Source of the DNA: an uncultured Planctomycetales bacterium
Lineage (GTDB): Bacteria; Omnitrophota; Gorgyraeia; Zapsychrales; JANLHA01
Assembly (NCBI GenBank): GCA_964489065.1
Contig: CAZAXH010000004.1
Location: 150,304-214,303 of the forward strand
Direction: 5' to 3'
DNA: 64,000 nucleotides
The position numbers and the translations under genes were made by a program. Below, in pieces: positions 1,655-62,475 of the stretch (the first letter of the stretch is position 1; every line of letters starts with the position of its first letter). A model generated the notes under the pieces. It was not told where the DNA came from. It made no database searches and saw only the letters and a program-made list of their open reading frames with translations.

Positions 1655-2659
1655 TTACTTGGGCGCTCGGCAGGAATCACGAACGACAAGCTGCGGGGTT
1701 AAAACCATCTGAACCGCGGATTTTTTTTTCCCGGACATAATATTCTGCAGATATTTCACCGCGTATTCGGCCATCTGAAACAGCGATTGCCGGATTGTGG
1801 TCAAAGCAATAGGACCATAAAGGCTGGCCGGATTATCGTCGAATCCGATCACGGATATATCATCAGGCACCTTCATCCCTCTCTCCTGTATGACAGCAAT
1901 GACCTCCAAAGCCATATCATCACTGGCGACAAAGACCGCGGTCGGCGGCTGAGGAAGCGCCAGAAGCTTCTCCATCGCACCCCTGGCACTGCGGCGGGAA
2001 TAATCCCCTTCGAGCACATATTCATCTTTCACCGGAATGTTTTCCTTCTGAAGCCCCTGCCGGAAGCCCTCAAAGCGCTGCAACCCGGCCTGCGTCTGCA
2101 GAGTGCCGGTAACCGTGGCGATGCGTTGGTGCCCCAAGCTGACAAGGTAATCGGCGGCAATGCGGCCGCCTGCCACATTATCGATCCCGATATAATTCAC
2201 ATCCAGATCATCCACGACATTGTTAATGACCATACAAGGGACATGGGCGGCCAAGGTCTCTTCAACCTGTTTCCGGTTCTCAATAATATCGGCAAAAATG
2301 ACGCCTCCGACGCTATTCGTATTAAGCGGATTAAAACCATTGGTAATATGAAAAACCAAATCCAAGCGCAGGGTCTCGCAGGCATGCCCCACACCCCGGA
2401 TAATTTCGATGGCATAAAAAGAATAAAAAATCCCAGGATATCCGGGCATGACCAGCCCGATAGCATTATTAGTGCCGCTGGCCAGACGCTGGGCGCTGAC
2501 ATCCGGCTTGTATTTCAAAGCCGCGATCGCTTCTTCTACTTTAGAACGGTTATGCTGGCTGACGGTGGGAACATCATTAATGACACGCGAAACGGTCGTA
2601 ATGGAAACCTTAGCGCGGCGGGCGACATCTTCTATGCTGACTTTACGTTGCCTGGTCAC
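1655..2659 (-). CDS. LacI-family transcriptional regulator
   Basis: N-terminal HTH (RQRKVSIEDVARRAKVSITTVSRVIN) followed by a periplasmic-binding-protein-like sugar-binding fold. GTG start. Confidence 0.85.
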   Translation of the reverse strand: MTRQRKVSIEDVARRAKVSITTVSRVINDVPTVSQHNRSKVEEAIAALKYKPDVSAQRLASGTNNAIGLVMPGYPGIFYSFYAIEIIRGVGHACETLRLDLVFHITNGFNPLNTNSVGGVIFADIIENRKQVEETLAAHVPCMVINNVVDDLDVNYIGIDNVAGGRIAADYLVSLGHQRIATVTGTLQTQAGLQRFEGFRQGLQKENIPVKDEYVLEGDYSRRSARGAMEKLLALPQPPTAVFVASDDMALEVIAVIQERGMKVPDDISVIGFDDNPASLYGPIALTTIRQSLFQMAEYAVKYLQNIMSGKKKSAVQMVLTPQLVVRDSCRAPK

Positions 2660-2670
2660 GTTATCCTGAA

Positions 2671-3999
2671 TTATCGTACGACGTCACCCACACGGATGGA
2701 GGTGACTTTGTTTTTAATATCCGCGGCGGCAATGTCTTTGCGCACCTGGATCACTTCCAGAGCCGCGACATACTCCGCTCCCCGGTAAACACTCATATTA
2801 TCCCCCAGCTTTAGACCGTCATTCTGGCCTAAATCAACGATAACAAAATTATTTTCATCATTCACGGAAACAATATTGCCGTCAAACCCCGGAGCGGGCA
2901 AAACGACTTCCGGGATCCCCTCGCTCTTTTCTCCAGCGCCGGAAACGACAATCGGCGGAAGCTCCACGGCCTTGGAAGACGCTCCTGACATCTGAAAATT
3001 TTTCTCCAGGCTGTCCTTAATTTGCCAGATCTCATCAATGCGGTTTTGAATGACATGCTCGGTTTCCATCAGTTTCCGCTCCACGTCCTTCTTTTCATCC
3101 TGCAGACGCACAATACTCTTTTCCAAAGCAATTTTAGTCGAACTCAAGTCTTTGATCTGAGACCGCAAGGCCATGTTTTCCTCGTTAAGTTTCGCGAAGC
3201 GGCCATTTAAAAATTCCTTATCATTTTCCGCCCGGGCTAGGGCCAGAGATAAATTGTCCGCCAAATCTTTCCCGTGTTTGATTTCCCGCTCAATAGAATC
3301 TTTGGTGGTAACCAACTCCGAAATTTCCAGCTCCAAGTCTGAGTTTGATTTCTTTAAGGCTTCCAACTCGAGCATATTGGCATCCAGTTTCTTTTTTAAA
3401 GCATTCACTTCCAGTTCAAGGGAAGTTTTCTCGCGGATGACCTGCGCCCAATAAGTTTCATTATCCGGCGGCACATCAGGGATATTGTTCGTCGATATTC
3501 TTTGACCGGGAGAAGACGGTTCCGGCTTGTTATCTGCCGCGGGGCTGACAGAAGCAACCGTCCCCGGAGGCTCCACCGGCGCTCCGGTTTCCCGCTCCAC
3601 ATATTTATAGACAATTTGCGGTTCGGATTTTTCTTTGACCTTAGATAACAAGGTGGTCCGCTCTTTTTCCAGCGCCGCTATTTTTTCCTGCAAGACATTC
3701 CGTTCGCCGGTCAAATCCGCAATCTGTTTGTTCAGGGACTCCACATCACCATCGAAAGAACTTAAGCGCTCTTCCAACTCGGATTTCTTTTTCTCAACAT
3801 CTTTCAGCTTTTCCTGCAGGTCTTTATTTTCAAAGATATATTTTTTCTCCCGTTGCTGAAAATCATCCACCTGTTTCTCCAAAGATATCTTTGATTTATC
3901 AGACTCTTGTTTCTGAAAAGCAATATACGTTAGCAATCCGACGGAGACAAAAAGCAATAAGAGCAAGAAAACTAAGATAGACTTTGCAGCTCTCGACAT
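2671..3999 (-). CDS. membrane-anchored long coiled-coil protein with C-terminal beta domain
   Basis: N-terminal TM helix, roughly 300 aa of heptad-rich E/K/L sequence, and a C-terminal domain (NIVSVNDENNFVIVDLGQNDGLKLGDNMSVYRG). Strong SD AAGGAGA before the ATG at 3999. Confidence 0.6.
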   Translation of the reverse strand: MSRAAKSILVFLLLLLFVSVGLLTYIAFQKQESDKSKISLEKQVDDFQQREKKYIFENKDLQEKLKDVEKKKSELEERLSSFDGDVESLNKQIADLTGERNVLQEKIAALEKERTTLLSKVKEKSEPQIVYKYVERETGAPVEPPGTVASVSPAADNKPEPSSPGQRISTNNIPDVPPDNETYWAQVIREKTSLELEVNALKKKLDANMLELEALKKSNSDLELEISELVTTKDSIEREIKHGKDLADNLSLALARAENDKEFLNGRFAKLNEENMALRSQIKDLSSTKIALEKSIVRLQDEKKDVERKLMETEHVIQNRIDEIWQIKDSLEKNFQMSGASSKAVELPPIVVSGAGEKSEGIPEVVLPAPGFDGNIVSVNDENNFVIVDLGQNDGLKLGDNMSVYRGAEYVAALEVIQVRKDIAAADIKNKVTSIRVGDVVR

Positions 4000-4258: not shown

Positions 4259-4900
4259 TTATTGATATTGAATATTATCCAGATAAAACGTGCAGGTGTC
4301 TGGATTGACGTCCACATTCGTCGACCAGGAAAACCCGCCGCTCACATAAGATAAATCACGGCCCCGCAAATCGATTGTATATTTGCGCCACTCGTTTGTC
4401 AAAATCACCGGCCCGATGATCGCCATATCAGAATCCGGGAAATCCCCGGTAATCCCGCCCATTTTAAATTCCTCAATACGCTCGCCGCCTTTTTCCCCTT
4501 TCGCCCAAAAGCTCAGCTCCCGTGCGCCGTCAAGGTTAAACCCGCCTTTGCGATTGCCCCAGTTATTCGCCGGGTTCAGCCAATAAATACCCGCCCATTT
4601 CTGATCATCCTTCGAGCATGCCACGTCATACTCAACACGAATACATGTTTTACCGTCATAGCAATTTTCCTGCCACGCGTCGTTAAAATTGATGCATTTC
4701 CCGTTCGGCATAAAACCGGAAGGGACAAAATGATTTCCCCGGGACCCTTTATCTTGGTATACGAGGAACGGCTGAAAAGTGGTTTCTTCCTGTGCCACAT
4801 TTCGGTCAGGCTGCCCCTCTGAACTCCCCCGAGAGCTTTGGTTGCAGCCCCCGCATACGAGCAGAAAACACAGCCCCCCAAAAAAGACAGTCTTATTCAT
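4259..4900 (-). CDS. secreted lipoprotein, possible carbohydrate-binding beta-sandwich
   Basis: ATG at 4900 gives MNKTVFFGGLCFLLVCGGC, a signal peptide with a Cys near the cleavage region. W/G/N-rich beta-type sequence. Last gene of the glycan locus. Confidence 0.55.
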   Translation of the reverse strand: MNKTVFFGGLCFLLVCGGCNQSSRGSSEGQPDRNVAQEETTFQPFLVYQDKGSRGNHFVPSGFMPNGKCINFNDAWQENCYDGKTCIRVEYDVACSKDDQKWAGIYWLNPANNWGNRKGGFNLDGARELSFWAKGEKGGERIEEFKMGGITGDFPDSDMAIIGPVILTNEWRKYTIDLRGRDLSYVSGGFSWSTNVDVNPDTCTFYLDNIQYQ

Positions 4901-4970
4901 AAAACATCTCGCCCTTTCATTAAAATCATTTCCCATCACTTAAAATTAAATTGATCGCAGGATAATAAAG

Positions 4971-5018: not shown

Positions 5019-5056
5019 AAAATACGGATCAATCCAGAGACAAAAAAGAGGAGAAA

Positions 5057-5917
5057 TTATTCTTCCTCCAAAGCCTCAAGTTTCTGTTGGGCGCCTTCCG
5101 CCGGCTTCCAGAACCAGCCCTTGGGGTCCCAACACTGTGAAAAATAATAGTCATCAACCAGCTTCTTGAAATTCTTCTTGGCTTCTTCTTTGTTGCCGGC
5201 ATTCAAATAAGCTTCGCCTCTGATAAAAAGGCAGGTCCCAACGTCATTCAGCGCCCAGTATGAAAAAATCTTGTCTTTCGACTCCCAAGCGTATTCGGTC
5301 ATGGATTCCTGCATCTCTTTAGCTTTGGCCTCATAAAGCTCCAAACACTTATTCGTGTAAGCAACAACGCTGTCCAAATCCTTATTAGCAAGGGCTTCCC
5401 ATGCTTTGACGGTCAACGTCATAGACGTATAGTCACCGAAGTCCAAATTAGAACCAGATTCGATCATGGCGATCTTTTCTTTTGCGGCCTCCGCCGGTTT
5501 CCAAAACCACCCCTTCGGGTCCCAGCATTGACCATACGTATACTCGTCCACCACCGTCTGATACGCCTTCACCGCTTCATCCGTCATTTTAGCTTTGCGG
5601 TACGCTTCCCCCTGGATAAACAGGCCGGTCGCAATATCGTTCAACGCCCAGTATGAAAAAATTTCATCGTTCGTACCTGTCGGATAAGCCGTCAGACTGG
5701 CCTGCATCTTTTTGGCCTGCTCGGCGTATAATTCAACGCATTTATTCGTGTAAGCCAAAACGGCCTCCAAGTCGTTTTCTCCCAAGGCCTGCCAGGCGTT
5801 CGTGATCAACGTGACAGAGCGGTAATCCCCAAAATTATAGGCAGCGGCGGGCACAGGAATGGCTAAAGACACTCCTACCATGGCCATCATCATGCATAAT
5901 AAAATCTTTTTGTACAT
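5057..5917 (-). CDS. secreted protein composed of two tandem copies of a Trp-rich helical domain (QCWDPKGWFWKPAE motif)
   Basis: Signal peptide, then two roughly 130-aa repeats (aa 27-156 and 157-286) with about 60% identity. Each ends in [YF]xQCWDPKGWFWKPAE. Confidence 0.8.
   Translation of the reverse strand: MYKKILLCMMMAMVGVSLAIPVPAAAYNFGDYRSVTLITNAWQALGENDLEAVLAYTNKCVELYAEQAKKMQASLTAYPTGTNDEIFSYWALNDIATGLFIQGEAYRKAKMTDEAVKAYQTVVDEYTYGQCWDPKGWFWKPAEAAKEKIAMIESGSNLDFGDYTSMTLTVKAWEALANKDLDSVVAYTNKCLELYEAKAKEMQESMTEYAWESKDKIFSYWALNDVGTCLFIRGEAYLNAGNKEEAKKNFKKLVDDYYFSQCWDPKGWFWKPAEGAQQKLEALEEE
5060..5839 (-). repeat. in-frame tandem duplication (2 x ~390 bp) inside the CDS
   Basis: The two halves align at about 70% nucleotide identity, e.g. 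gccggcttccagaaccagcccttggggtcccaacactg versus gccggtttccaaaaccaccccttcgggtcccagcattg. Confidence 0.7.
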
Positions 5918-6150
5918 CTCTAAGGTCCCTCCAGTTGGTTAAACGCGATTTCCTTTCAAATGAATTTCTTATATTAAGGCCCCTATGCCTTCCGAGGCAA
6001 TCTAACCTTGCGGTCAGATACGGGTAATAAAAAATTTAATCAGTTCTCCACACCCCCTCTCCTATTAAGATATATACCAAAAAACAACGGAGTAATTATA
6101 GCATTTTTACCCGTTATTTAGCAAATTGAATCTTAGCCCAACCCCCGTCT

Positions 6151-8772
6151 TCAGTTCCAAGCTTCCTTGTAAAACTCATAACTCTTCCGCAACTGACGCA
6201 TAAACGGGCTGTGCGTCCCATTGCCCTGACTTGTAATACCAAACCATTCCTCATAATAATACCCTCCGGGGAAAGGCCCGATGGCATCAGAACGGCGGTC
6301 ATGATAAAATGGCTCGTAATTCTTCCACCATTCATCCGTCCACTCAAAGACAACCCCTCCCAGGGCGTTCCCGGCCCCTTCCGCATGCCCTGCCATATTG
6401 GCTTCAATATCATGCCAGTTGCCACGATGATAATTCATCTGCGCCTCCTCGCCTTCCGCTTTCGTGAGATGCTTGGCATAGGCCGGGCAACCGTATTCTG
6501 TAATAAAAGCCGCTTTCCCGGTTGACTCCTGAACCTGTTGCCAGAAAGCGCCAAAACCATAGTCCCCGCGGTAAACATTGGCCGCAAAAATATCAATATC
6601 CGGCGCATTCTTCGCAAAAATATCCAAATACAGGGTATCGCCGTTACATAATGCTACCGGATGATTAGGATCAATGCTCTTGATCATTTTAGCCACTTCA
6701 TTGGCAAACTTGTAATACGCTTCTGGTTTTTTGTCCGCGTTAGAGGCGACCCCGTAATTATTCTCGTTTCCCAAAAGCCAAAACAAAAGATACGGCTCGT
6801 CCTTATGTTCCATGACCATCTGACGGACGGATTCCATCATATTCTTCTGATGTTCCGGATTTTCATAATCGGTCCCCTCAAACCAGGTTGCCCCGGACCC
6901 CAGAGTATATTTCCCAAGAAAATCGCCTAAGATCACCCGGATACCATGTTCTTCATAAAGCTTACGGAAAACCTCTTTATCCGGTTTAATCGGCTGCTGG
7001 TATTCGCGAATGGTGTTGCCGCCCATCTCCTTAATCAGCTTGAAATCCCCGACCACCGGCTCATCCGGGTCCTGCTGATTGTTGCCGTTTCTATCCACCC
7101 AGGAATCATAAGGGCCGTCCGGCTTGCCGTTCTTATTGGTGTCTTCATACATCCAGGACACCAAGGTTCCCTTGTCCGGACTCTGGCCGATCTTGGTCGG
7201 AGCATAAGTAATCCCTTTGATAACATAGGGGTTGCCATCGACAAAAAGTTGCCAGTGCCCGTTATCATACTGAACGAGTGACACCTTGCCTTCTCCCAAA
7301 CGCCGGGCAACATTCCGTAACGGCACCTTTTTTTGATCCAGGTTCAGGCTTCCCTTCACCTTATCCATCCAGCCCCTTTCCTGAACGACCCCGGGATACG
7401 TGACAACAATGTCATTGCTGACATCGTTGTCAAAACCGTTTTTAACTTCTATTTTCATCCACTTCACTTTTAAATTTAATTCCGGATGAGACCGCACCAA
7501 ATAAACAATCTTGGAAACCGCGGCCTGGGCCGGATACCAGGGCGTCTGCCAGTAAGTCCACCCGACCGTTTTGGGAAAATGGACAACAATGGCCTGGTAA
7601 GTTTTAATGGCTTCATAATACATCTGCGCTTTTTCAAAAATCATACCCAGGTAAAAAAGCTTGACCCCTCCGGGTTCCGGAGCCGTCGCCCATTTATAAA
7701 AAGCCGCCTCCAGGTCATCGCTATGAACAAAATCCCAGTGGCTTCCTTCCAGGCGGCCCTCCTTTTTGGCCTGTTTATATTTCGGATCCTTAAACACATC
7801 GGCGGTATTAGGGTATATCCCTTCTCCGACAGCCTCCTTCAAGCCCTTAAGATCGTTGATCTTATAATGATACCGATCTGTCCCCACGTCCAGGAACTCG
7901 CCGTATTTATGATAATCGACCACTTGATCTGTCCCGGGAAACGCCAGCGAGGGGAGGGTCTTCAACCGTGTCGGCGGCTCCTCCACCTCCTCTTCAACTT
8001 TCCCGGTCATGACATCAATACTTGCCTGGCTCTTTTCCGCCACCGACCAGTACGACCCGCGGGAAGGGTCCCAGGCCTGCGCCCAAGGATATTCATCAAT
8101 GATCTTCTGAAAGGTCGCGATCGACTCTTCCGTGCGTCCGTAATTCATCATGGCTTCCGCCTGGACAAAAAAGAGAGTGGCCACCGCATTCAAATAAGGA
8201 TAATCCTTTTCCTTGCCGCGCCCGGGAAATCCGGACAACGACGCTTCTTCTTTGCGGGCCTCGGCGTCAAAAAGCGTTAAAGCCACCCCCACCAGCTTAT
8301 CCAACGGCTCCAGCTTCCTCTGGCTGGACAATTCCCACGCCTTCCGGACAAAATCCTCCGTCGTCGCCCCGGCTTCAAGTTCAATGTCCGCGTAAGGGAA
8401 ATTCCCGTCTGCCGGTAATGTAATAACACTCTTTTCCGCAGAAACATCCTGTGCGACTTCTCCCTCGGCATTACCGCCCTTTTCCACGGCCGCTTCAGCC
8501 GCCGGAGATTCTGTTTCCGCCGCCGGAACGGCTCCTTCCGGAACGCTCCCGGCCGCGGCTTCAGAGCCCTGGGCTTCCTGCTGTACCGTGTCTGGAGCAA
8601 GGGAACTCTCCTGCTTCACCGGCTCTTGCGCCTCAACGGTCGTTTGAATAGCCGGGCTTTCGCCAGCCGCTTCCTGAGCATAGCCGAATGTCGCCGGGCT
8701 TAACAGGAAAATTCCCGCCAAAAGTATTGATAATCGCGACACAGTTTTTTCCCCTTGATTATTTTTTTTCAC
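6151..8772 (-). CDS. secreted multidomain glycoside hydrolase: signal peptide, A/E-rich linker, two copies of the Trp-rich helical domain, then a clan GH-A TIM-barrel (GH2/GH5-like) catalytic domain
   Basis: Candidate catalytic motifs LLGNENNYG and ITEYGCP plus DEWWK. N-terminal half contains YPWAQAWDPSRGSYWSVAE and VGWTYWQTPWYPAQAA, matching the domain in 5057-5917. GTG start with GGGAGG SD. Confidence 0.75.
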   Translation of the reverse strand: MKKNNQGEKTVSRLSILLAGIFLLSPATFGYAQEAAGESPAIQTTVEAQEPVKQESSLAPDTVQQEAQGSEAAAGSVPEGAVPAAETESPAAEAAVEKGGNAEGEVAQDVSAEKSVITLPADGNFPYADIELEAGATTEDFVRKAWELSSQRKLEPLDKLVGVALTLFDAEARKEEASLSGFPGRGKEKDYPYLNAVATLFFVQAEAMMNYGRTEESIATFQKIIDEYPWAQAWDPSRGSYWSVAEKSQASIDVMTGKVEEEVEEPPTRLKTLPSLAFPGTDQVVDYHKYGEFLDVGTDRYHYKINDLKGLKEAVGEGIYPNTADVFKDPKYKQAKKEGRLEGSHWDFVHSDDLEAAFYKWATAPEPGGVKLFYLGMIFEKAQMYYEAIKTYQAIVVHFPKTVGWTYWQTPWYPAQAAVSKIVYLVRSHPELNLKVKWMKIEVKNGFDNDVSNDIVVTYPGVVQERGWMDKVKGSLNLDQKKVPLRNVARRLGEGKVSLVQYDNGHWQLFVDGNPYVIKGITYAPTKIGQSPDKGTLVSWMYEDTNKNGKPDGPYDSWVDRNGNNQQDPDEPVVGDFKLIKEMGGNTIREYQQPIKPDKEVFRKLYEEHGIRVILGDFLGKYTLGSGATWFEGTDYENPEHQKNMMESVRQMVMEHKDEPYLLFWLLGNENNYGVASNADKKPEAYYKFANEVAKMIKSIDPNHPVALCNGDTLYLDIFAKNAPDIDIFAANVYRGDYGFGAFWQQVQESTGKAAFITEYGCPAYAKHLTKAEGEEAQMNYHRGNWHDIEANMAGHAEGAGNALGGVVFEWTDEWWKNYEPFYHDRRSDAIGPFPGGYYYEEWFGITSQGNGTHSPFMRQLRKSYEFYKEAWN

Positions 8773-8795: not shown

Positions 8796-9668
8796 TTATC
8801 CAACAACAGCGCCGGATGATAATCCTTTAATAATATGCTTCTGCATCAGAAGATAGACCACAATAATTGGCACGGCAGCGATGGTCAACCCCGCCATCAA
8901 AAGAGGATAGTCCGAAAGGTATGTCCCCTGAAAAACCATAAGCCCCCTTTGGATCGGCATAATGGTGGGATGATTGGGAATGTCATTCAACAACAACATC
9001 GCCAAGATATACTCGTTCCAGACATTTAAGGCGTTAAAGATCACGATAACGGCAATGGCCGGCCTGGCCAACGGGATAGCCACATGCCTCCATATCCCCA
9101 GTTTCGAGCAGCCGTCAATACGGGCAGCGTCTTCCAGGTCCGGCGGCATCTTGTCAAAAAACGTCTTTAAAAGCAAAATACTTAAAGACAGGCCCACATT
9201 GATCATGCAGAGCACATACCCCAGTTGCCGGACAAAGGGATAAGGCGAATTAATGAATCCCAGCTTTGTCATCAATACCGTTAACGGAACGAAGCTTCCC
9301 GGCAGGGGAATCATCATGGCCATGACAAACATGTAAAAGAAAAAATTTTTTCCCGGGAATTCTAGGCGGGAGAAAGCATAAGCGGCCAGAGAGGACACCA
9401 CCACAATCCCTATGACGACGGAAACCGTGTAGATAATGCTGTTGAGCGAATACATGGCGAACTGCCCCTGCGTCCAGGCCTTCACGAAATTATCAAAATG
9501 GATCTCCGCCGGAATCAGGGATTTATCCGTAAAAATCGTTTTGTTGCTCATCAGCGCCGAACGCGCCATCCAGAATAACGGGAATAAACAGGTTATCGTC
9601 ACGGTCAGGAGAAAAACGTGAATCAAGGTTGCCTTAACGTCCCGGATCACTCTATATTTATTGATCAT
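8796..9668 (-). CDS. carbohydrate ABC transporter permease (MalG-like)
   Basis: Six TM helices and the EAA-loop signature DAARIDGCSKLGIWRHVAIPLARPA. Confidence 0.85.
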   Translation of the reverse strand: MINKYRVIRDVKATLIHVFLLTVTITCLFPLFWMARSALMSNKTIFTDKSLIPAEIHFDNFVKAWTQGQFAMYSLNSIIYTVSVVIGIVVVSSLAAYAFSRLEFPGKNFFFYMFVMAMMIPLPGSFVPLTVLMTKLGFINSPYPFVRQLGYVLCMINVGLSLSILLLKTFFDKMPPDLEDAARIDGCSKLGIWRHVAIPLARPAIAVIVIFNALNVWNEYILAMLLLNDIPNHPTIMPIQRGLMVFQGTYLSDYPLLMAGLTIAAVPIIVVYLLMQKHIIKGLSSGAVVG

Positions 9669-9680
9669 GCCCTTTCCTTT

Positions 9681-10610
9681 TTAAGCCTGTTTCATGCGCT
9701 CGGATATTTTCTTGAGGACAAACGACACCGCTATTAAAATCATCCCGAAATTAACGCCCATGGCGCAAGCATAGCCGTACCGGTTCTGCCCGGTCATGGC
9801 CGCCAGTATCTTTGTGACAGGGACGGCGGTATAATCCCCCAGCCCCGAACTGCCCGCTAACGTCAAAATAAGGACAAAGGCCTGCATCGCCCCGAGGATC
9901 GTCAATATCATCACCACCACGATAACCGGAAGCATCATCGGAACCGTCACGTTCTTAAAAACACTGAACGAACCGGCGCCGTCCACCCGCGCCGCTTCAT
10001 AGAGCTGACGGTCGATCGTCTGCAATCCGGCCAGGAACATAATAAACCCCCAGCCAAATCCCTTCCAGGAATGGACCACGGCGATACAGGTTAAGACCGT
10101 CTTGGGATTGGACAGCCAATTGGTGATAAGGTTCGAAAATCCGATTTTGGCCAAGGCGCTGTTAAGCAGACCGATATGCTGGCCATCCTGCATACCGGAA
10201 TAAAGGATCCAGGACCAGATGAGCCCGACCACGACTTCGGAAAGCACCGGCGGAATAAAGAAGATAACCCGGTACACCCCTTTCATGAAGATTTCCTGGT
10301 CGCAGGCCAGGGCCAAAGCAAAGGCCAGGGCGTTCTGAAAAGTCAGGGCGATGAGGGTGATATACGCGGCGTTCCACATGGACTTCCACCAGCCACGATC
10401 CGCCATCAAGTCCTTAAAATTCTCAAATCCGATATAAGTTCTGGCCAGGCTGATACCGTCCCATTCCTGCAGGGACAGTTTAAATATTTCATAAAAAGGA
10501 ACAATATAAAACACGCAAAAGATAAGAACAGCAGGCAGGACAAATGAGAAACTTTCCAGTTGATCCCGGAGTTTCGGGAGCGAAAAACTGCTTTGTTGGT
10601 ACAAAGGCAT
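9681..10610 (-). CDS. carbohydrate ABC transporter permease (MalF-like)
   Basis: EAA motif EAARVDGAGSFSVFKNVTVPMMLP and multiple TM helices. Confidence 0.85.
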   Translation of the reverse strand: MPLYQQSSFSLPKLRDQLESFSFVLPAVLIFCVFYIVPFYEIFKLSLQEWDGISLARTYIGFENFKDLMADRGWWKSMWNAAYITLIALTFQNALAFALALACDQEIFMKGVYRVIFFIPPVLSEVVVGLIWSWILYSGMQDGQHIGLLNSALAKIGFSNLITNWLSNPKTVLTCIAVVHSWKGFGWGFIMFLAGLQTIDRQLYEAARVDGAGSFSVFKNVTVPMMLPVIVVVMILTILGAMQAFVLILTLAGSSGLGDYTAVPVTKILAAMTGQNRYGYACAMGVNFGMILIAVSFVLKKISERMKQA

Positions 10611-10637
10611 TATGATTGGTTTCGTTTTAAAAACTAT

Positions 10638-11948
10638 TTATTTGCGTTTTTGTTTCTTCGCCATCTCGCGTTCTTTTACGCTCTGCACTTCCTGGGCGAC
10701 CTGTTCCGGAGTTTTTTCTCCTATAATAATCGACTGGATCCCCTTGTCAAACGCTTCGATCACAAGGGGATCTTCATTCAGCGGCCAAATCGTCGGATGC
10801 GTGGTCGCGTCCATAGCCCGGGCGAACTCCGAAAGCACGTCGGGAATATCGGTCAGCGCATACCGGTTAGCCGGCAGATTCAGCGTTTCTTTTGATAGAT
10901 ACGACTGCTGTTCCTTGGCGGAAAGCCATTTCAGGAAAGCAATGGCCTTATCCTTCTTGTCGGAAGCATTGTTGACAACAAAAGAAGAGCCGGCCCCGCC
11001 CCAAATCCGCATGGGAAGATCATGATTATATTTAGGAGGAAGCATAACCCCATACTCCAGATCAGGGTTCATTTCGTTGTAGACATTCACGCACCAGGAC
11101 CCGTTAAACGCAAAGGCGGCCCGGCCCAGGGCGAAGTCCTGTTCCGCATACTTATTGGCCTTGGTCACAATCCCTTCCAGCAAAGCGCCTTTTTGCCGCA
11201 ATGTATCAAAAATCCGGAACACTTCAACCCACTCGGGGTCAGTATACGGCACTTTCCCCCGGAACGTGTTCATGACTTTGTCTTCCCCCATAATATTAAA
11301 CGCATAATTAGACGCAAAACAATCCGCCATCCACAGCTCTCCCCAGCCGGAAACCAGCCCGGAAACGCCCACCCGGTTCAAGGCCTCCGTGGCCGCTAGG
11401 AATTCCTCTAACGTCTGGGGAGGATTTGCCACGCCGGCCTTTTCCAGAAGTTTCTTGTTATAAAGCATCTGAATATTGGTCACATCGATAGGAACGCCGT
11501 AAATTCCAGGCTCAACATTATAGACATTGCCTTCTTCAAACCGGTTGGCGGACATGGCTTTGGGAAACATGCTTTTCTCCCACGCGCCGTCATCCTTCAT
11601 GAATTCCTCGGTCAATTTGGCGACAAATCCGCTTTCAATAAACGTCGCAAACACGGCCTTCTTATCCAGGATGCCGAAAACATCCGGCAAAATATGCGCC
11701 TGGGCAGCGGCAATAATTTTCTGGGAATACACGTCAGAAGGGGCATACAATTCAAAAACCACTTCCACCCCGGTCTCTTCTTTGTAGCGTTTGGCCAGCT
11801 CATTTAAAGCATCATGCCGGTCGGTCATCCAGTGCCACACCGTAATCATATTTTTATTCGGAGTAACCGCCGGACCGCAACTCTGACAACTTCCGATAAT
11901 CGCCGCCAAAACACAAAGACCGATCACTAACAGCAATTTCCCTTTCAT
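10638..11948 (-). CDS. extracellular solute-binding lipoprotein of a sugar ABC transporter
   Basis: Signal peptide plus lipobox (LAAIIGSCQSC). Family 1 SBP fold features. Confidence 0.8.
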   Translation of the reverse strand: MKGKLLLVIGLCVLAAIIGSCQSCGPAVTPNKNMITVWHWMTDRHDALNELAKRYKEETGVEVVFELYAPSDVYSQKIIAAAQAHILPDVFGILDKKAVFATFIESGFVAKLTEEFMKDDGAWEKSMFPKAMSANRFEEGNVYNVEPGIYGVPIDVTNIQMLYNKKLLEKAGVANPPQTLEEFLAATEALNRVGVSGLVSGWGELWMADCFASNYAFNIMGEDKVMNTFRGKVPYTDPEWVEVFRIFDTLRQKGALLEGIVTKANKYAEQDFALGRAAFAFNGSWCVNVYNEMNPDLEYGVMLPPKYNHDLPMRIWGGAGSSFVVNNASDKKDKAIAFLKWLSAKEQQSYLSKETLNLPANRYALTDIPDVLSEFARAMDATTHPTIWPLNEDPLVIEAFDKGIQSIIIGEKTPEQVAQEVQSVKEREMAKKQKRK

Positions 11949-12313: not shown

Positions 12314-14731
12314 CTATCCAAGAACCACCTTAACGCGATGAACCTGACCGTCTTTAACGGGCACAACAACATCCCCGTCTATAACTTGCCCGTCTACCGT
12401 TATCGTCTTCTCGCCTTTTTCTTTTCCAAGAGGGTTCAAAATTTCTATTTCGTAAATATCTCCCCTGAACGGGCGCCGGACAAAACATTTTTTCCATTGC
12501 GGAGGCAGACACGGGTCAATCTTGAGTCCCTGGAAATCCCGGCGGATCCCGCAAATCCATTCAGTCGCCAGCATAAAATTCCAACCAGCCGTTCCCGTAA
12601 TCCAGGTAAAAGCGCCTTCCCCATACCGGTAGGGGTTGCCGGGACCGACCAGATATTCCGCAAACACATAGGGTTCGGTTTTATAAAGCTCCATATTCTT
12701 CTGTTTATTGGGCATAATTTTACACACCGCCTCGTAAGCTTTCGCTCCGTACCCGGCCATGGCATAACCGACAGCCATGAACGTGGCCGCGTGGCAAAAC
12801 ACGGCCGCGTTTTCTTTGGTACCCTCTGAAAACATGCTGATCCGGCCCAGCCTTTTGACCCAGTCTGAAAAGGCGGGGGCAAAAAGCGCCAAACCGTGCG
12901 GGCCGTTCAAGTGCTTGTCCACGGCCTGTATAATTTTCTTAAGCCGTTCGCCCTCCGCGACGCCGGAAAGAATCGCCCAAGCCTGCGTGTTCAAGAAGAT
13001 CTTCCCTTCTTTATCCTGCTTGCTCCCGTAAACCTGGCCCTGGTCATCAAACCCGCGGGAATACCATTCCCCATCCCATCCGGCATTGTTAATGCGTTCG
13101 GTCATGGTTTTAGCCATTTGCAGGTATTCGGATTTTTTTTGTTCTTCATTCACCAGCTGACAGAGTTCAGCCAGCATCTTCAAGGAACGGACCAGCGCCT
13201 GGGCCAGCCACACGCTTTCCCCGCGGTGCTTAATGCCTGCGGCGTCAATCGCGTCATTCCAGTCGGCGTGCCCGATGCGGGGAAACCCTTTTTCGCCGAC
13301 ATCATTAAAACAAAAGCTCAAATTCTTTTCCAGGTGCTCCAGGAGCGTCCCTTCCCCGTCCGTCTGAGCGCCGCCCTGATAATTCGGATCGACCTCCCAA
13401 CCGTTGATCCACTTATCCTTCAAATAAGGAACATATTCAGAAAGGATATCCTTGTCCCCGGTTTCCTTAATATAAGCCGTGACCGTGGTCGTCAGCCAGA
13501 CCGGATGGTCTTTATTGGGGAGGAATTTATGCGGCCCCGCTGTTTCCGACCATCCGGGAGCGGAGGTGCCGTCCCGCCGGATCAGGGAGGCCAGTTTCAA
13601 TATCTTTTGACGGGTCAACGCCGGGTTAATGGACACGACCGCTTCGGAGTCCTGGGCGGAGTCCCGGTAGCCCCGGCCGCCGGACCCTTCGTGATAAAAA
13701 CTCGGGGAACGCGACCACAGGTTACAAATATAAAGCTGGTATTTGACCCATACATTAAATAAAGTATTAAAATCCTTATCCGGCGTTTCCACCACAATAT
13801 TGTCTGTAACGCGCTTGAGCCACAGCTCTTTTGTCTTTTCCAGTTCGGCTCTGGCCTGCTTCAGGTCGCGATACTTGGCGATAAGTTTCCCGATACCCGG
13901 GATGTCCGGCGTCTGCCCTAAAACAACAGAAAACTCCTTGGTTTCCCCGGGCTTAAGCGTCACCGTGTGTTTAAAAGCCCCGATGCCGTCTTCCCCCGAG
14001 CACACCGGGAAATTCTTGAAGCGGCCTTCCAGCACCGCGTCCGGCCTCTCTTCAGAATTATACCGCCCGAGAAACGCGTCTTTTTGCGTGCAACACCCTT
14101 TCACCGCCAGGGACGATGAGAAATAAATCAGGGAGTCAAACGGCTGGATATTCATCCCCTGCCATTGCGCTGTTTTCTTGGCGAAAACGGCCTTATGCCC
14201 TTTATCAAACCAAACCCGCGTGTACAGGTTCATGATGTTCCGGTAGCGGATCTCCTCATGATAATCCCCGATCAGGAATTCCACGTAGGGATACAGCTCC
14301 AGTTTCTTCTCCTTTTTGGTCTGATTGGAGATTCTGGCCAGCCAGACTTCACAGGAATCATGTTCCGGGACGAAATAGGTCACCTCCGAATGAACACCGT
14401 TGTTAACCGCGGCAATCGTCGTATACCCCAACCCGTGCCGGCACTCATATTTCTGAGGTTTAACCCGCAGGGGCTGATAAGTTAAGGACCAGGCCTTTGT
14501 CCCTTCCCGCATGAAAATGTATTTCCCCGGCCGGTCAAAGTGCCAGTTTTCCGGCGCCCAGCGGGTTATCCGGTTTGTCCGGCAGTCTTTATAAAAACTG
14601 TATCCTCCCGCGCACTGGGAAATGATGCTGCAATAAGTTTCATTCGTAAGATAATTAATCCATGGCCGCGGGGTTTCCGGCGTGCAAATTACATATTCCA
14701 ATCCCGATTTTGAAAAAGAACCGTACTTCAT
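12314..14731 (-). CDS. GH94 glycoside phosphorylase (cellobiose/cellodextrin/chitobiose phosphorylase family)
   Basis: N-terminus MKYGSFSKSGLEYVICTPETPRPWINYLTNETYCSIISQCAGGYSFYKD is the hallmark of GH94 phosphorylases. Length 805 aa. Confidence 0.85.
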   Translation of the reverse strand: MKYGSFSKSGLEYVICTPETPRPWINYLTNETYCSIISQCAGGYSFYKDCRTNRITRWAPENWHFDRPGKYIFMREGTKAWSLTYQPLRVKPQKYECRHGLGYTTIAAVNNGVHSEVTYFVPEHDSCEVWLARISNQTKKEKKLELYPYVEFLIGDYHEEIRYRNIMNLYTRVWFDKGHKAVFAKKTAQWQGMNIQPFDSLIYFSSSLAVKGCCTQKDAFLGRYNSEERPDAVLEGRFKNFPVCSGEDGIGAFKHTVTLKPGETKEFSVVLGQTPDIPGIGKLIAKYRDLKQARAELEKTKELWLKRVTDNIVVETPDKDFNTLFNVWVKYQLYICNLWSRSPSFYHEGSGGRGYRDSAQDSEAVVSINPALTRQKILKLASLIRRDGTSAPGWSETAGPHKFLPNKDHPVWLTTTVTAYIKETGDKDILSEYVPYLKDKWINGWEVDPNYQGGAQTDGEGTLLEHLEKNLSFCFNDVGEKGFPRIGHADWNDAIDAAGIKHRGESVWLAQALVRSLKMLAELCQLVNEEQKKSEYLQMAKTMTERINNAGWDGEWYSRGFDDQGQVYGSKQDKEGKIFLNTQAWAILSGVAEGERLKKIIQAVDKHLNGPHGLALFAPAFSDWVKRLGRISMFSEGTKENAAVFCHAATFMAVGYAMAGYGAKAYEAVCKIMPNKQKNMELYKTEPYVFAEYLVGPGNPYRYGEGAFTWITGTAGWNFMLATEWICGIRRDFQGLKIDPCLPPQWKKCFVRRPFRGDIYEIEILNPLGKEKGEKTITVDGQVIDGDVVVPVKDGQVHRVKVVLG

Positions 14732-25962: not shown

Positions 25963-27081
25963 TTATCCTGATGCGGGACACTCCTGGCCCAGAGAGGTTT
26001 CAATCACACCGCCGCCCAGAACCGTGTCTCCCTCATATAAAACCACGGATTGTCCCGGCGTCACTGACTTTTGCGGCTCATCAAAAACAAGCCGGCTCTT
26101 CCCGGACTCCAAAACAGTCAGCCGCCCCTTCACGTCCCGAGCATTATAACGAATCCGCGCCGTGACCTCAACCGTTCGTTGCGGGATCATCGGCTGCAGG
26201 TAATTCATCTCTCCGGCCAGCAACCCTTCCGCGTAAAGATACTCTTCCGGCCCGACATAAACGGTGTTCTCATCAGGGTCAATCCTGTAAACATAAACCG
26301 GAACCCCGAGGGCGATCCCGAGCTGGTCTCTCTGGCCGATCGTGTACCGGGCGATCCCCTGATGCCGGCCCACGACCTCCCCTCTCGGATTTTTAAACGG
26401 ACCGGGAAGAAACCCCTCCGCCCCGGGTCGGGCCTGAATAAACGTTTTGTACCCACCCGGCGGGACAAAACAAATATCCTGACTTTCCGCTCTTTCTGCC
26501 GTCGGAAGTCCCCAACGGCGCGCCAGGCCCCGGACTTCTTCCTTGCTCAAATTCCCTAAAGGAAACACAATAAACGGCAGGGCCTCGGCGGCAAGCCCGT
26601 ACAGAAAATACGACTGGTCTTTATTCGCGTCCGCCCCTTTCCGAAGCCGGAAACAGCCTGTTTCGTCATAGCGGTCGATCCGGGCGTAATGCCCGGTCGC
26701 CAGATAATCCATCCCCAATTGCTTCATCAAAGCCCGCAGCGCACCGAACTTCAAATACCGGTTACACCGCACGCAGGGATTGGGCGTGCGGCCGCGGCCA
26801 TATTCCTCAATAAAATCTTTAATCACCAGATCTTCCAGGTCGCGGGAAAAATCCAGGACATGATGCGGAACCTCCAGGCACCGGGCAACGGCTCGCGCCG
26901 CCTGGATGCTTTCCTCTCCGCAGCACGCGGGCCTCCGTCCGGAGGGGGAAGGGATACTAAAACACATCGTCACCCCTTCCACTTCATAGCCCTGTTCCTT
27001 CAAAAGCGCCGCCGCCACCGAAGAATCAACCCCGCCGCTCATCGCGACCGCAACTTTCTTCCTTCCCCTGTCTTTGACCAT
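25963..27081 (-). CDS. mnmA: tRNA 2-thiouridine(34) synthase MnmA
   Basis: PP-loop VAVAMSGGVDSS. ATG at 27081 with GGGAGGG SD. The track start 27111 is GTG. Confidence 0.85.
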   Translation of the reverse strand: MVKDRGRKKVAVAMSGGVDSSVAAALLKEQGYEVEGVTMCFSIPSPSGRRPACCGEESIQAARAVARCLEVPHHVLDFSRDLEDLVIKDFIEEYGRGRTPNPCVRCNRYLKFGALRALMKQLGMDYLATGHYARIDRYDETGCFRLRKGADANKDQSYFLYGLAAEALPFIVFPLGNLSKEEVRGLARRWGLPTAERAESQDICFVPPGGYKTFIQARPGAEGFLPGPFKNPRGEVVGRHQGIARYTIGQRDQLGIALGVPVYVYRIDPDENTVYVGPEEYLYAEGLLAGEMNYLQPMIPQRTVEVTARIRYNARDVKGRLTVLESGKSRLVFDEPQKSVTPGQSVVLYEGDTVLGGGVIETSLGQECPASG

Positions 27082-27158
27082 ATCCCTCCCGCCCCCGCCG
27101 CGGCCTAACACCCCTCGCGGCTATTCCCGGCAACCGGAGAGCCGTCCCTTTCCCCCGT

Positions 27159-29417
27159 TCACGCCGGAACCGGCGCTCCTTCGGTCACGCTTTGAATCGC
27201 TTCATAGGTCGCCCCCAAAAGCTGATCCATTTCACTGCGGCCCACAGACAAAGGCGGCATGAGAACAATCACATCCCCCAGCGGCCGCAAGATCACGCCT
27301 CTCGACCGGACTTCCTGGCACACCCGGATCCCGACTTTCTCCTTACAGTCATAAGAAGTCTTCGAAGCCTTGTCCGCGACAAGCTCTATCCCGGCCATAA
27401 AACCCTTCTGCCGGATATCCCCGACGTGAGAAAGGCCGGCGAACCGCTGCAGGGCCTTTGTCAGGTACTTAATTTTAGGCTGCAGTTTAAGCAGTGTTTG
27501 TTCTTTCTCAAAAATACTCAAATTCGCCAGCGCCGCGGCGCAGCCCAAGGGGTTCCCCGTATACGTGTGCCCGTGGAAAAACGTTTTCTGGGATTCGTAA
27601 TCATAACAAAACCCGTCAAACACGCGCTGGGTCGTCAATGTCGCCGCCAGCGGCAGCGTGCCGCCGGTCAGCCCTTTGGCGACGCAAAGGAAATCCGGGC
27701 TGACTTTTTCCTGCTCGCAGGCGAACATGGTGCCGGTTCGCCCGAACCCGGTCGCAACCTCGTCCGCGATCAACAATATATTATATTTGTGGCACAAATC
27801 CTGGATTTTCTTCAAAACCCCTTCCGGCCAGACAATCATCCCGGCCGCCGCCTGGACCAGGGGCTCCACGATAATAGCCGCGAGCTCATGCTGGCGATGT
27901 TTTAAAATTTCGGCCATCACCTGCAGGCATTCTTCCGTGTACTCCGGATAATGTTTTCCATCCGGCGCGCGGTAAAAATCGGGAAACGGTATTTCCAGCG
28001 TTTTAAAAACCATTTTCTCGTACACCTTGTGAAACAGCGCGATGCCTCCAACGCTGACGCTCCCGCAGGTGTCACCGTGATACGAACGGGCCAAATGCGC
28101 GATCAGGGTCTTGTGGTGTTTTCCCTTATTCTGCCAGTACTGATACGCCATTTTCATCGCCACCTCAACGGCCGTCGAACCGTTATCCGAGTAAAACACT
28201 TTCCGCAATCCTTGCGGCGCTATCTCGACCAGCTTCTTGGCGAGCGCGACCGCGGGCACATTGGATAACCCCAAAAACGTCGAGTGGCTCAGCCGGTTGG
28301 CCTGTTCTTTGATGGCCCGGGTTAAAACAGGATGACCGTGCCCGTGGACATTCACCCACAGGCTGGAAACGCCGTCGAGATATTTTCTCCCGGAAACATC
28401 CTCCAGATAGGACCCCTTCGCTTTATGAATCACCAGAGGGTCTTCTTTAAGCCAATCCTTCATTTGAGTAAAAGGATGCCAGACCGCCTGTTTATCCCAA
28501 GACCCCCAGGGCATAGGTCTCGCGTCCGGCGATTGACTTAACAGCGGCTTGATATTCACGATCCGCGAACACCGCTTCACGATTTCGTCCTGGTATTGTT
28601 CCGGTGAGGGTTGGCCCAAGTAAGGAATGACCCCCAAGACCGGAACCCGGCCCAGGCGGCGTACCGCCGCAGGGTTCGTCTTCTCGGCCGCCCCCTGTGG
28701 GGAGGACGCAGGCTCATTAAAAATAACACCGAGCACTTTAATCCCCATCTCTTCGGCCTGGCGCAGAGTCAACAGCGTGTGATTAATCGTTCCCAGCCCC
28801 AAGCGTGCCACCACCACGACATCCAAATCCATGTCTTTAATCAAATCGGCCATAAAATACGTGTCGGACAAGGGCACCATCAGCCCGCCGGCCCCTTCCA
28901 CCAAAGTCAGGTCGTGCTTTTCCTGAATCCGGCGGTATTTCTCCAAAACCGTCGCCGCGTTAAAACGGATCCTGTCCTGATGCATCGCGATATGCGGGGA
29001 AAGTTCCGCTCCGGCTTTAAAAGGATTGATATCCTGCCTGTCATCCTTGGGATCAAACATCTGGCACAAAATATCCGTATCCTGCCCGCCGCACTGCACG
29101 GGCTTCATCACCCCGATATCGAGCCCCCTTTTCTGCAACAACGTCCCCAGAACGCAAAGCGCAACTGTCTTTCCGGCGCCGGTGTCGGTTCCGGTTATAA
29201 AAATCCCCCTCCCTTTCGTCTCCACAGCCTGGGGCGCGGCCGGAGTTCCAGCCCTAGACCCGGAGCGACGCCTTGCGTGCCGGTGATCCCGCGGCGGATG
29301 AGCTTCCTGTTCTTCGGACACCTCTTCCGACATCATGTCAAGGATATCCATGGGGTTAATCGCATCCGCTTCGACTTCCTGTTTTGTCTTCTTGGGTAAA
29401 CGTCTTTCTCTTCTCAT
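27159..29417 (-). CDS. bioD-bioA: fused dethiobiotin synthetase (BioD) / adenosylmethionine-8-amino-7-oxononanoate aminotransferase (BioA) with ~70-aa basic low-complexity N-terminal extension
   Basis: BioD P-loop GIFITGTDTGAGKT, then a class III aminotransferase domain. The ATG overlaps the bioC stop as ATGA. Confidence 0.8.
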   Translation of the reverse strand: MRRERRLPKKTKQEVEADAINPMDILDMMSEEVSEEQEAHPPRDHRHARRRSGSRAGTPAAPQAVETKGRGIFITGTDTGAGKTVALCVLGTLLQKRGLDIGVMKPVQCGGQDTDILCQMFDPKDDRQDINPFKAGAELSPHIAMHQDRIRFNAATVLEKYRRIQEKHDLTLVEGAGGLMVPLSDTYFMADLIKDMDLDVVVVARLGLGTINHTLLTLRQAEEMGIKVLGVIFNEPASSPQGAAEKTNPAAVRRLGRVPVLGVIPYLGQPSPEQYQDEIVKRCSRIVNIKPLLSQSPDARPMPWGSWDKQAVWHPFTQMKDWLKEDPLVIHKAKGSYLEDVSGRKYLDGVSSLWVNVHGHGHPVLTRAIKEQANRLSHSTFLGLSNVPAVALAKKLVEIAPQGLRKVFYSDNGSTAVEVAMKMAYQYWQNKGKHHKTLIAHLARSYHGDTCGSVSVGGIALFHKVYEKMVFKTLEIPFPDFYRAPDGKHYPEYTEECLQVMAEILKHRQHELAAIIVEPLVQAAAGMIVWPEGVLKKIQDLCHKYNILLIADEVATGFGRTGTMFACEQEKVSPDFLCVAKGLTGGTLPLAATLTTQRVFDGFCYDYESQKTFFHGHTYTGNPLGCAAALANLSIFEKEQTLLKLQPKIKYLTKALQRFAGLSHVGDIRQKGFMAGIELVADKASKTSYDCKEKVGIRVCQEVRSRGVILRPLGDVIVLMPPLSVGRSEMDQLLGATYEAIQSVTEGAPVPA

Positions 29418-61887: not shown

Positions 61888-62061
61888 TACCTTCCTCCTC
61901 TCTTCATATCCGCCGTCCAATGGACAGGGGAATGAAGTTGTTATAGGTTTTATTTAAATTCCATAAATTCCCGTGACGCGTACCCAACGCCCCAAGATCA
62001 TCGGCAACGCGAGCCGCCACTGCTGGCGAAGCGATGACCGATGGATTTGGTTGTTAGAAGT

Positions 62062-62376
62062 TTATTTTTCAGGTAGTTCTTCTTTTTTGTTGCAAAGATT
62101 GCCGTATTTAGTTTGTGTATAAATAGTGTAAGGCAAAACTACGGTATCGGCTACCAAACTAAACGGCATGTCTAAAATTATAAATCCAGCGTCTTCACAT
62201 GGTCCTTCCTGTAAAAAACGCATATCATTAGATATGCCGGAATAAACTCTAGTAATGGTATTTCGTGTGTTACAATCGAATTTTTCAATATTACGCCCCA
62301 CTGAAAGTGTAGCTATGGACGAACAGCCAGATGAGATGATGATACACAAGGAAACTATGGTGAATTTAACTTTCAT
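62062..62376 (-). CDS. small lipoprotein in AT-rich region
   Basis: MKVKFTIVSLCIIISSGCSS lipobox. GC about 30%. Confidence 0.5.
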   Translation of the reverse strand: MKVKFTIVSLCIIISSGCSSIATLSVGRNIEKFDCNTRNTITRVYSGISNDMRFLQEGPCEDAGFIILDMPFSLVADTVVLPYTIYTQTKYGNLCNKKEELPEK

Positions 62377-62475
62377 AAATTTACTTGTGCCAAACCAAGA
62401 TGAAAACGCATAAATCTTGCATGTCCCCCATAAACCATGCGCGCACTTTTTGTTTTAACTTGTCATCTTTGAACG

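Follow-up and report, generated by a model that had tools for sequence, protein, structure and literature searches.

What is a tryptophan-rich helical repeat doing in two adjacent proteins of a beta-glycan utilization locus? The question is raised by a 64,000-nt stretch of DNA, here called the window (contig CAZAXH010000004.1 of assembly GCA_964489065.1, positions 150,304-214,303, forward strand), from a member of the Omnitrophota, which are ubiquitous, mostly uncultured ultra-small bacteria. The two proteins, of 286 and 873 aa, are predicted to be exported by means of N-terminal signal peptides. A sequence-only reading had proposed that the repeat was an uncharacterised domain, possibly a new carbohydrate-binding module (CBM). 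Its description was borne out in that two neighbouring exported proteins of such a locus share a discrete helical module, rich in Trp and repeated, and the module proved to be a derivative of the tetratricopeptide repeat (TPR). As for what it does, we somewhat favour a role as an exported, TPR-derived adaptor or scaffold in an envelope beta-glucan utilization module.

The unit and its relation to tetratricopeptide repeats

The 286-aa protein consists of a signal peptide and two copies of the unit, which were located with a unit hidden Markov model (HMM) built from 64 homologues split into halves, and with an AlphaFold2 (AF2) model:

5057..5917, minus strand: gene for the 286-aa protein, predicted exported, with a signal peptide and two 131-aa TPR-derived units (open reading frame [ORF], translation)
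5840..5917, minus strand: predicted signal peptide, aa 1-26 (MYKKILLCMMMAMVGVSLAIPVPAAA, cleavage before Y; read from the sequence)
5447..5839, minus strand: unit 1, aa 27-157 (unit HMM E 1.7e-70; Pfam TPR_6 at aa 99-126; DSSP of the AF2 model)
5495..5530, minus strand: aromatic beta-hairpin of unit 1, QCWDPKGWFWKP, aa 130-141 (sequence; AF2 strands 131-132 and 138-139)
5060..5446, minus strand: unit 2, aa 158-286 (unit HMM E 1.4e-69; topology as in unit 1, AF2)
5102..5137, minus strand: aromatic beta-hairpin of unit 2, QCWDPKGWFWKP, aa 261-272 (sequence, AF2)

Both matches (E about 1e-70) lie far beyond chance. The direct-repeat scan placed the two units in tandem and in frame with a period of 393 nt, in agreement with the duplication proposed from the sequence. 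The proposed length of about 130 aa was likewise close to the 131 aa obtained here, while the proposed nucleotide identity of about 70% was too high: we obtained 64.6% over 359 nt, with 78% in the best 73-nt stretch, and 57% amino acid identity over 126 aa by pairwise alignment. Both units end in YxQCWDPKGWFWKPAExA, as had been described, and the hairpin segment is letter-identical in the two.

In the AF2 model of the 286-aa protein (alignment of 64 homologues; mean predicted local distance difference test [pLDDT] score 90.3), residues 2-19 of the signal peptide formed an isolated helix, and the linker after it was modelled with low confidence. In each unit, helix 1 and the long helix 2 came first and a short helix next; helices 3 and 4 then made up the Pfam TPR motif, CWDPKGWFW folded into a beta-hairpin of two strands, and a capping helix closed the unit. 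The paired helices were arranged as antiparallel hairpins. For unit 1, DSSP assigned helices to residues 34-46, 50-73, 83-86, 90-108 and 112-125, the beta-hairpin to residues 130-141 and the capping helix to residues 141-154.

Profile and structure searches pointed to the same superfamily. The 286-aa protein exceeded the Pfam cut-offs of TPR_6 (PF13174; 46.8 bits, cut-off 26.3), TPR_2 (36.6, cut-off 27), TPR_1 (29.0, cut-off 27.8) and TPR_8 (28.9, cut-off 25.7), with the TPR_2 and TPR_8 matches in unit 2 at aa 229-254, and the 873-aa protein reached 34.3 bits for TPR_6, above the cut-off of 26.3. NCBIfam gave only weak matches, to tol_pal_ybgF (YbgF) and OM_YfiO (BamD). When the model of the 286-aa protein was compared with the PDB by Foldseek, the best 50 matches were all TPR proteins, with probabilities up to 1.00, and included designed CTPRs, kinesin light chain, P58IPK, BamD, LapB and YfgM.

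Two results count against this assignment. The Foldseek E values were no better than 5e-3, with TM-scores of 0.2-0.35 that are low partly because the model comprises two domains, and the Pfam TPR match spans only about 28 of the 131 residues of each unit. Canonical 34-residue TPR motifs do not occur three or more in tandem in the protein: in each unit Pfam found a single one (at aa 99-126 in unit 1 and 229-254 in unit 2), the first hairpin of the unit is non-canonical, with a second helix of 24 residues, and the beta-hairpin breaks the array. By sequence, the 286-aa protein matched nothing in the PDB, and a 64-sequence profile found nothing there better than E 0.55, for the designed TPR CTPR3Y3 at unit positions 44-125. 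Sel1 (PF08238) gave no match at E<=1 in either protein, nor did CBM families in Pfam or NCBIfam, and SusD_RagB was unmatched in Pfam for both.

Taken together, the TPR_6 score above the cut-off, the best Foldseek matches, all of them TPR proteins, and the naming of homologues by NCBI indicate that the unit is a TPR derivative with an added aromatic beta-hairpin, and not a new fold. Of the known families to which the sequence-only reading had allowed that the unit might belong, TPR thus largely applies, by TPR_6 and Foldseek, and Sel1-like repeats and CBMs found no counterpart. Its term 'uncharacterised' still holds for the unit as a whole, since its 131 residues are not covered in full by any family of Pfam or NCBIfam or by any solved structure and our literature search found neither the motif GWFWKP nor this operon described; it does not hold for the fold. 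The same search gave no match for Omnitrophota together with cellobiose phosphorylase, and the Omnitrophota papers name TPR only generically.

The unit shares with TPRs of the TPR_6, YbgF (CpoB) and BamD type a 34-residue helix-turn-helix scoring above the cut-off and (predicted) export in a diderm cell. Unlike them, it has one canonical motif in 131 residues and a 24-residue second helix in its first hairpin, and its capping helix is preceded by an aromatic beta-hairpin, which stands after the last TPR helix in place of the 'yP.s..a..A' ending and is unseen in the TPR structures matched. In contrast to a continuous TPR superhelix, it is a self-contained module that is repeated one to six times.

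Conservation, computed over 217 unit instances, was highest at an A-W pair in helix 1, at A42, Q46 and L49, and in an A-L-N-D-V-x-T motif, of which the Asn (N67) is 100% conserved and D68 is also among the invariant residues. In the hairpin, with the consensus Q-C-W-D-P-x-G-W-F-W-K-P, conservation was 81% for Q104, 77% for W106, 88% for D107, 85% for G110, 67% for W111 and 90% for W113. The most divergent units have partly lost the Trp residues (YAQVKDAKGNLWS, YAQAQDWKGNYFK in the homologues P0272 and P0309) and retain Q, D and G. A disulfide within the unit was considered and dropped: Cys is frequent at unit positions 34, 72 and 105, with no strict co-occurrence and with A, T, V or S as replacements, and these are better read as buried positions.

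The family is large, centred on Omnitrophota and nearly confined to them. At least 2,101 clusters at 90% identity hold relatives of the 286-aa protein, and the named ones are 'tetratricopeptide repeat protein' of Candidatus Omnitrophota plus one of Aureabacteria; identical or 99%-identical relatives, also so named, occur in Candidatus Omnitrophota metagenome-assembled genomes (MAGs). A profile search of 1.84 billion representatives of 50%-identity clusters returned 1,214 matches at E<=1e-3, of which 755 were at E<=1e-10. The motif search that had been suggested for metagenomes was run as GWFWKPA[ED] over 185,579 species genomes and gave 264 confirmed relatives, the best 80 of which were all from Omnitrophota MAGs or from MAGs labelled 'uncultured Planctomycetales'. 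Among the best 150 proteins, 86 had one near-complete unit, 40 had two, eight had three, five had four and three had five; P0245 has five and a partial sixth. Unit boundaries were constant across the proteins examined, which range from one to six tandem units.

Two unusual homologues were observed. P0339 (5,953 aa, NQU99257.1, labelled Parcubacteria group bacterium) has three unit-like stretches at about aa 4011-4615 and is the sole match with a taxonomic label outside the Planctomycetes-Verrucomicrobia-Chlamydiae group, for which mis-binning or horizontal transfer is possible. In a Candidatus Aureabacteria MAG (JAGLFH010000049.1; locus L007, 1-17311), a three-unit homologue lies between two LacI-family regulators, with unannotated gene triads on both sides (224/495/196 aa and 227/499/197 aa) and a 1,112-aa TPR protein on one side, an arrangement that looks like a duplicated cassette.

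The operon core of enzyme, two-unit protein and lipoprotein

The second protein with the unit is an enzyme encoded directly upstream, with a signal peptide, an Ala/Glu/Pro-rich linker, a full unit, a spacer, a half unit, a beta domain and a TIM barrel of glycoside hydrolase (GH) clan GH-A:

6151..8772, minus strand: gene for the 873-aa enzyme, predicted exported (ORF, translation, Pfam, AF2)
8005..8361, minus strand: full divergent unit, aa 138-256, hairpin WAQAWDPSRGSYWSVA (HMM E 5.2e-21, unit positions 8-126)
7489..7713, minus strand: C-terminal half of a unit, aa 354-428, WTYWQTPWYPAQAA (HMM E 9e-4, unit positions 57-125)
7207..7473, minus strand: beta-strand domain before the barrel, aa 434-522 (AF2 strands, model residues 314-402; no family assigned)
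6154..7206, minus strand: predicted clan GH-A (beta/alpha)8 catalytic domain, aa 523-873 (Pfam, phmmer, Foldseek)

The divergent copies in the N-terminal half of the enzyme were recovered with the unit HMM and hhalign, as the sequence-only reading had anticipated. The full copy, with the motif WAQAWDPSRGSYWSVAEKS, aligned to the unit with a probability of 100% (E 5.5e-41, 29% identity) and has the secondary structure H-H-H-H-hairpin-H in the AF2 model. The second copy aligned at unit positions 58-126 only (probability 93-94%, E 4e-7 to 8e-8) and comprises a lead helix, a TPR_6 hairpin (Pfam, aa 372-402), the aromatic hairpin GWTYWQTPWYP and a capping helix (AF2). Since it spans just the C-terminal half, the window holds three full units and one half unit, so that the repeat is indeed in both proteins, though not four times as had been counted; the unit HMM found no further copies elsewhere in the 64 kb.

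The assignment of the enzyme to clan GH-A was upheld by Pfam (Glyco_hydro_2_C, 37.6 bits, cut-off 21), phmmer and Foldseek. Its best relatives in both sequence and fold are the GH158 endo-beta-1,3-glucanases BuGH158 (6PAL) and GH158(Pro) (9ORO). The phmmer matches to these (9ORO 7.6e-11, 6PAL 5.1e-10) cover just about 130 residues, and in the Foldseek comparison of the barrel GH158 came first (E 8e-12, TM-target 0.55, 20% identity), with GH2 glucuronidases and GH72 glucanosyltransferases close behind. We describe the domain as a distant GH158-like clan GH-A barrel, a candidate member of GH158 proper. The putative acid/base E670 (GNENNY) and nucleophile E759 (ITEYG), numbered E550 and E639 in the model, were invariant in 41 homologues, and their motifs align with GNE and TE(F/W)G of 9ORO and 6PAL; in BuGH158 the catalytic-motif residues are N136, E137 and E220, and a C-terminal Ig-like domain packs on the barrel (PMC7157763). 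Unlike BuGH158, the 873-aa enzyme ends with its barrel and has the TPR units and the beta domain on the N-terminal side, at an identity of about 20%. The AF2 model of residues 121-873 (753 aa, pLDDT 83) had a predicted TM-score of 0.83, which suggests that the units pack in a fixed manner against the catalytic part. At least 686 homologues, nearly all from Omnitrophota, share the TPR plus GH-A architecture.

The third member of the core lies downstream of the two-unit protein:

4259..4939, minus strand: predicted lipoprotein of about 212 aa, probable start ATG 4897 (MNKTVFFGGLCFLLVCGGC...; translation)

Its family counts at least 1,025 homologues, every one labelled 'hypothetical' and without a Pfam domain, and the lipoprotein matched nothing in Pfam at E<=10, in the PDB by phmmer or in a PDB profile search. 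Trp, Gly, Asn and Asp are each invariant at certain positions in the family, which also has a terminal strand of YLDxIQY type.

To assess how well these genes keep together, we compared 80 species-representative loci, 71 evaluable upstream and 73 downstream of the TPR gene. A GH-A gene lay directly upstream in at least 61 of the 71, and a lipoprotein gene directly downstream in 70 of the 73; most of the 80 species-level genomes thus carry the conserved core. The operon order recurs in distant Omnitrophota at 61-75% identity, the importer genes described below follow the window's order in related loci, and in one related locus a three-unit orthologue occupies the same slot. The three loci lacking both neighbours are second paralogues, whose genomes also carry the canonical locus.

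Fusions joined the same parts. P0317 (1,939 aa; 21 contigs) has a barrel of the same GH-A subfamily as the window enzyme (BLASTP 3e-19, 34% identity), broken by two domains of the lipoprotein family (E 5e-39 and 5e-22) inserted in a loop and followed by three units together with He_PIG and DUF4082 domains; its gene adjoins one for a protein with Laminin_G_3 and a GH5 cellulase. As enzyme, units and lipoprotein domain are fused here in a single polypeptide, this is strong comparative evidence that the three proteins act together, and as the lipoprotein domain is inserted in a barrel loop near the active site, it may be a better candidate for binding the glycan substrate than the unit is. P0309 (1,202 aa) joins a window-type GH-A domain (6e-26) and two units to a multi-pass GT2/cellulose-synthase-like domain, and in P0272 a CHB_HEX_C_1 (chitobiase C-terminal) domain is fused to four units. 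The hydrolase-scaffold-synthase chain of P0309 recalls BcsZ, BcsC and BcsA in one polypeptide.

The core is embedded in an operon whose genes, like all those of the region, are on the minus strand, in the order GH94, solute-binding protein, permease, permease, TPR-GH-A enzyme, two-unit protein, lipoprotein, coiled-coil membrane protein, LacI:

12314..14731, minus strand: GH94 glycoside phosphorylase, 805 aa (Pfam Glyco_hydro_94 and GH94_b-supersand)
8796..11948, minus strand: parts of an ATP-binding cassette (ABC) sugar importer, permeases 8796-9668 and 9681-10610, solute-binding protein 10638-11948
6095..6124, minus strand: promoter-like site, TTGCTA, 18 nt, TG-TATAAT (consensus scan, 10/12 matches and an extended -10; a consensus match only)
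2671-3999, minus strand: predicted membrane-anchored coiled-coil protein, 442 aa (translation, Pfam)
1655-2659, minus strand: LacI-family regulator (Pfam)

Both the GH94 phosphorylase and the sugar importer named in the sequence-only reading were found by Pfam. The phosphorylase has its catalytic and supersandwich domains (Glyco_hydro_94 3.1e-106, GH94_b-supersand 2.5e-67), and its nearest solved structure is the cellobiose phosphorylase 3QDE, matched over the full length at 4e-143, with the laminaribiose phosphorylase 6GGY far behind at just 8e-44. The importer has a solute-binding protein (SBP_bac_8 and SBP_bac_1) and two permeases (BPD_transp_1 in each), and a Pfam check of the neighbourhood found no ATPase gene beside them. 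The operon genes include no TonB-dependent transporter, the transporter being of the ABC type. The 442-aa protein combines a membrane helix at its N-terminus and a small beta domain at its C-terminus with a long coiled coil, and matched no specific family; its gene and the LacI gene also follow the lipoprotein gene in loci L003, L004 and L006.

The promoter-like site is within the 233-nt gap (5918-6150) between the enzyme and TPR genes, and a terminator-like hairpin (5050-5069, a consensus match only) overlaps the stop codon of the TPR gene. Gaps of comparable size (100-320 nt) separate the corresponding genes in related loci, a hint that the accessory gene may be separately expressed. Small PilZ-domain genes lie directly upstream of the operon in L004 (972-1295) and L005 (3164-3841), which suggests a possible cyclic di-GMP input.

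The role of the unit

For cellular location, binding partners and substrate we infer the following scheme. The core would be a GH158-like GH-A glycanase carrying one and a half units, a free two-unit protein (with three units in some species) and a small lipoprotein of a novel family, a probable glycan binder. The TPR units would provide adaptor or scaffold surfaces on which the enzyme and the accessory protein are held together with the anchored lipoprotein; guidance of the beta-glucan chain is a possible further function. Encoded with an ABC oligosaccharide importer, a LacI repressor and often a GH94 of cellobiose-phosphorylase type, the assembly would be sited at the envelope of a diderm cell lacking Sus/TonB systems; oligosaccharides freed from beta-glucan would pass to the binding protein, enter by ABC import and undergo phosphorolysis by GH94. 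In this respect it resembles the periplasmic TPR scaffolds PgaA, PelB, AlgK, BcsC and NlpI, which organise glycan-active enzymes. PgaA, an example in which the scaffold also touches the polymer (PMC9384988), serves as a precedent for this role too.

Weighing against this role, the invariant N67, D68, Q46, Q104, D107 and W113 would suit the binding of sugar no less than that of protein. Two of the second paralogues were found on inspection among housekeeping genes, and another three-unit homologue lies in an unrelated context, so the unit is not restricted to glycan loci. The substrate is also ambiguous, with a GH domain like a beta-1,3-glucanase, a GH94 like a cellobiose phosphorylase and, beside the fusion, a GH5 cellulase. 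The idea of a laminarin-specific locus was weakened likewise: the GH94 is far nearer to cellobiose and chitobiose phosphorylases than to that of laminaribiose, and the gene of the fusion protein P0317 adjoins that of a GH5 cellulase.

The first and main alternative, which we consider rather unlikely, is the one closest to the sequence-only reading: the unit itself would be a new all-alpha CBM, its Trp hairpin and invariant Asn, Asp and Gln binding beta-glucan, and its tandem copies giving avidity and targeting the enzyme. Each unit has four to six Trp, and W106, W111 and W113 are conserved across the family together with N67, D68, Q46, Q104 and D107; the partial loss of Trp in divergent units that keep Q, D and G, however, hints at a structural turn, and the Cys that opens the hairpin is swapped elsewhere for A, T or V, as for a buried position. 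Copy numbers of one to six recall tandem CBMs, and the repeated fusion to carbohydrate-active domains (GH-A, GT2, CHB_HEX_C_1) and the association of the genes with LacI regulators, Aureabacteria included, fit a glycan-binding function, whereas orphan paralogues stand in non-glycan contexts. Among TPR-based proteins, SusD is a further example of one that binds glycans. Glycan binding by such proteins also has a precedent in PgaA, whose periplasmic TPR domain binds poly-N-acetylglucosamine and modulates the glycoside hydrolase PgaB (PMC9384988). Helical solenoids of TPR type nevertheless mostly mediate protein-protein contacts, CBM, SusD and lectin families were all unmatched in Pfam and NCBIfam, and the operon offers a better CBM-like candidate in the lipoprotein domain doubly inserted in the P0317 barrel.

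In its fullest form, which we hold to be unlikely, this idea would have the unit found an all-alpha, TPR-derived CBM family, with the Trp-zipper-like hairpin as a glycan platform, and form with the enzyme and the lipoprotein a previously unrecognised three-component surface glycan-capture system, an Omnitrophota counterpart of Sus-like systems that feeds an ABC importer instead of a TonB-dependent transporter. The likeness to SusD lies in a helical, TPR-based accessory protein encoded beside a glycanase and a transporter, and the combination of enzyme, binding proteins, importer and regulator follows the logic of a Bacteroidota polysaccharide utilization locus such as the one in which BuGH158 lies (PMC7157763). 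In contrast to SusD systems, SusD_RagB is not matched, import is of the ABC type and not TonB-dependent, and size and topology differ; a preprint found TonB-dependent transporter/Sus architecture to be absent from its Omnitrophota genome collection (10.64898/2026.06.07.730766).

A second alternative, very improbable in our judgement, is that the units are a periplasmic scaffold of polysaccharide synthesis and export, like BcsC, PelB and AlgK, which guides nascent beta-glucan while the GH-A enzyme trims it, like BcsZ, PelA and PgaB. TPR scaffolds typify synthase-dependent exopolysaccharide systems (PMC9384988), PilZ-domain genes immediately precede the operon in two related loci, and in P0309 the GH-A domain and two units are joined to a membrane-embedded GT2/cellulose-synthase-like glycosyltransferase; that protein, however, is a single representative on one 5.9-kb ENA contig. 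Both in the window and in some 60 further species the genes are co-oriented with an importer dependent on a solute-binding protein. The loci examined, like the window, have LacI after them, and GH94 precedes in the window and in two other loci; importer, LacI and GH94 as neighbours form a catabolic signature. Among the genes of the window operon, the ORF list and Pfam showed no synthase and no outer-membrane export barrel. PgaA, PelB, AlgK and BcsC do resemble the present system in having periplasmic TPR modules coupled genetically and physically to a glycoside hydrolase whose substrate is the same polymer, but in those proteins, encoded in biosynthetic operons, a long TPR array is joined to an outer-membrane beta-barrel, whereas here short modular units with no barrel belong to an operon of import and catabolism. 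A sequence relationship closer than the generic TPR class was not found.

Least probable of all is that the free two-unit protein is a chaperone, inhibitor or competitor that mimics the N-terminal units of the enzyme, occupies their docking site and so regulates it: it consists solely of the unit type that the enzyme carries, the two genes are tightly paired, and the promoter-like site and terminator-like hairpin may permit separate dosage, but this support is purely circumstantial, the two signals being consensus matches only, and the existence of a single polypeptide in which units, enzyme and lipoprotein domain are fused argues for cooperation and not antagonism.

The remainder of the window and the meaning for Omnitrophota

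Outside the operon, the ORF at 34201-40422 on the plus strand, opposite to most genes, encodes 2,073 aa with a weak GH77-like 4-alpha-glucanotransferase region, GDE_N and GDE_C, a very large fusion for glycogen/alpha-glucan processing. The G+C content rises to 0.55-0.61 over 26001-32000, a region holding a BioD-BioA fusion gene (27159-29417), and falls to 0.39 in 62001-64000, where a 446-aa ORF (62476-63816) has no Pfam match.

Surveys of Omnitrophota genomes report just sugar transporters and glycolysis (PMC10066038). That TPR domains are common, and that homologues of the present proteins are labelled TPR, was already known; what appears to be new is a 131-aa module with a conserved hairpin embellishment. 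The operon core holds two unnamed families, the TPR-derived unit and the lipoprotein domain, and its value lies in a defined module, in a poorly understood phylum, with a conserved three-gene core and a fusion that links all three. If the unit is merely a protein adaptor, it would be a useful marker and would improve the annotation of more than 1,000 'TPR' and 'hypothetical' proteins. Were either the unit or the lipoprotein domain to bind beta-glucan, this would add new families of non-catalytic modules to the carbohydrate-enzyme repertoire and would show how polysaccharide is captured in bacteria without Sus/TonB systems.

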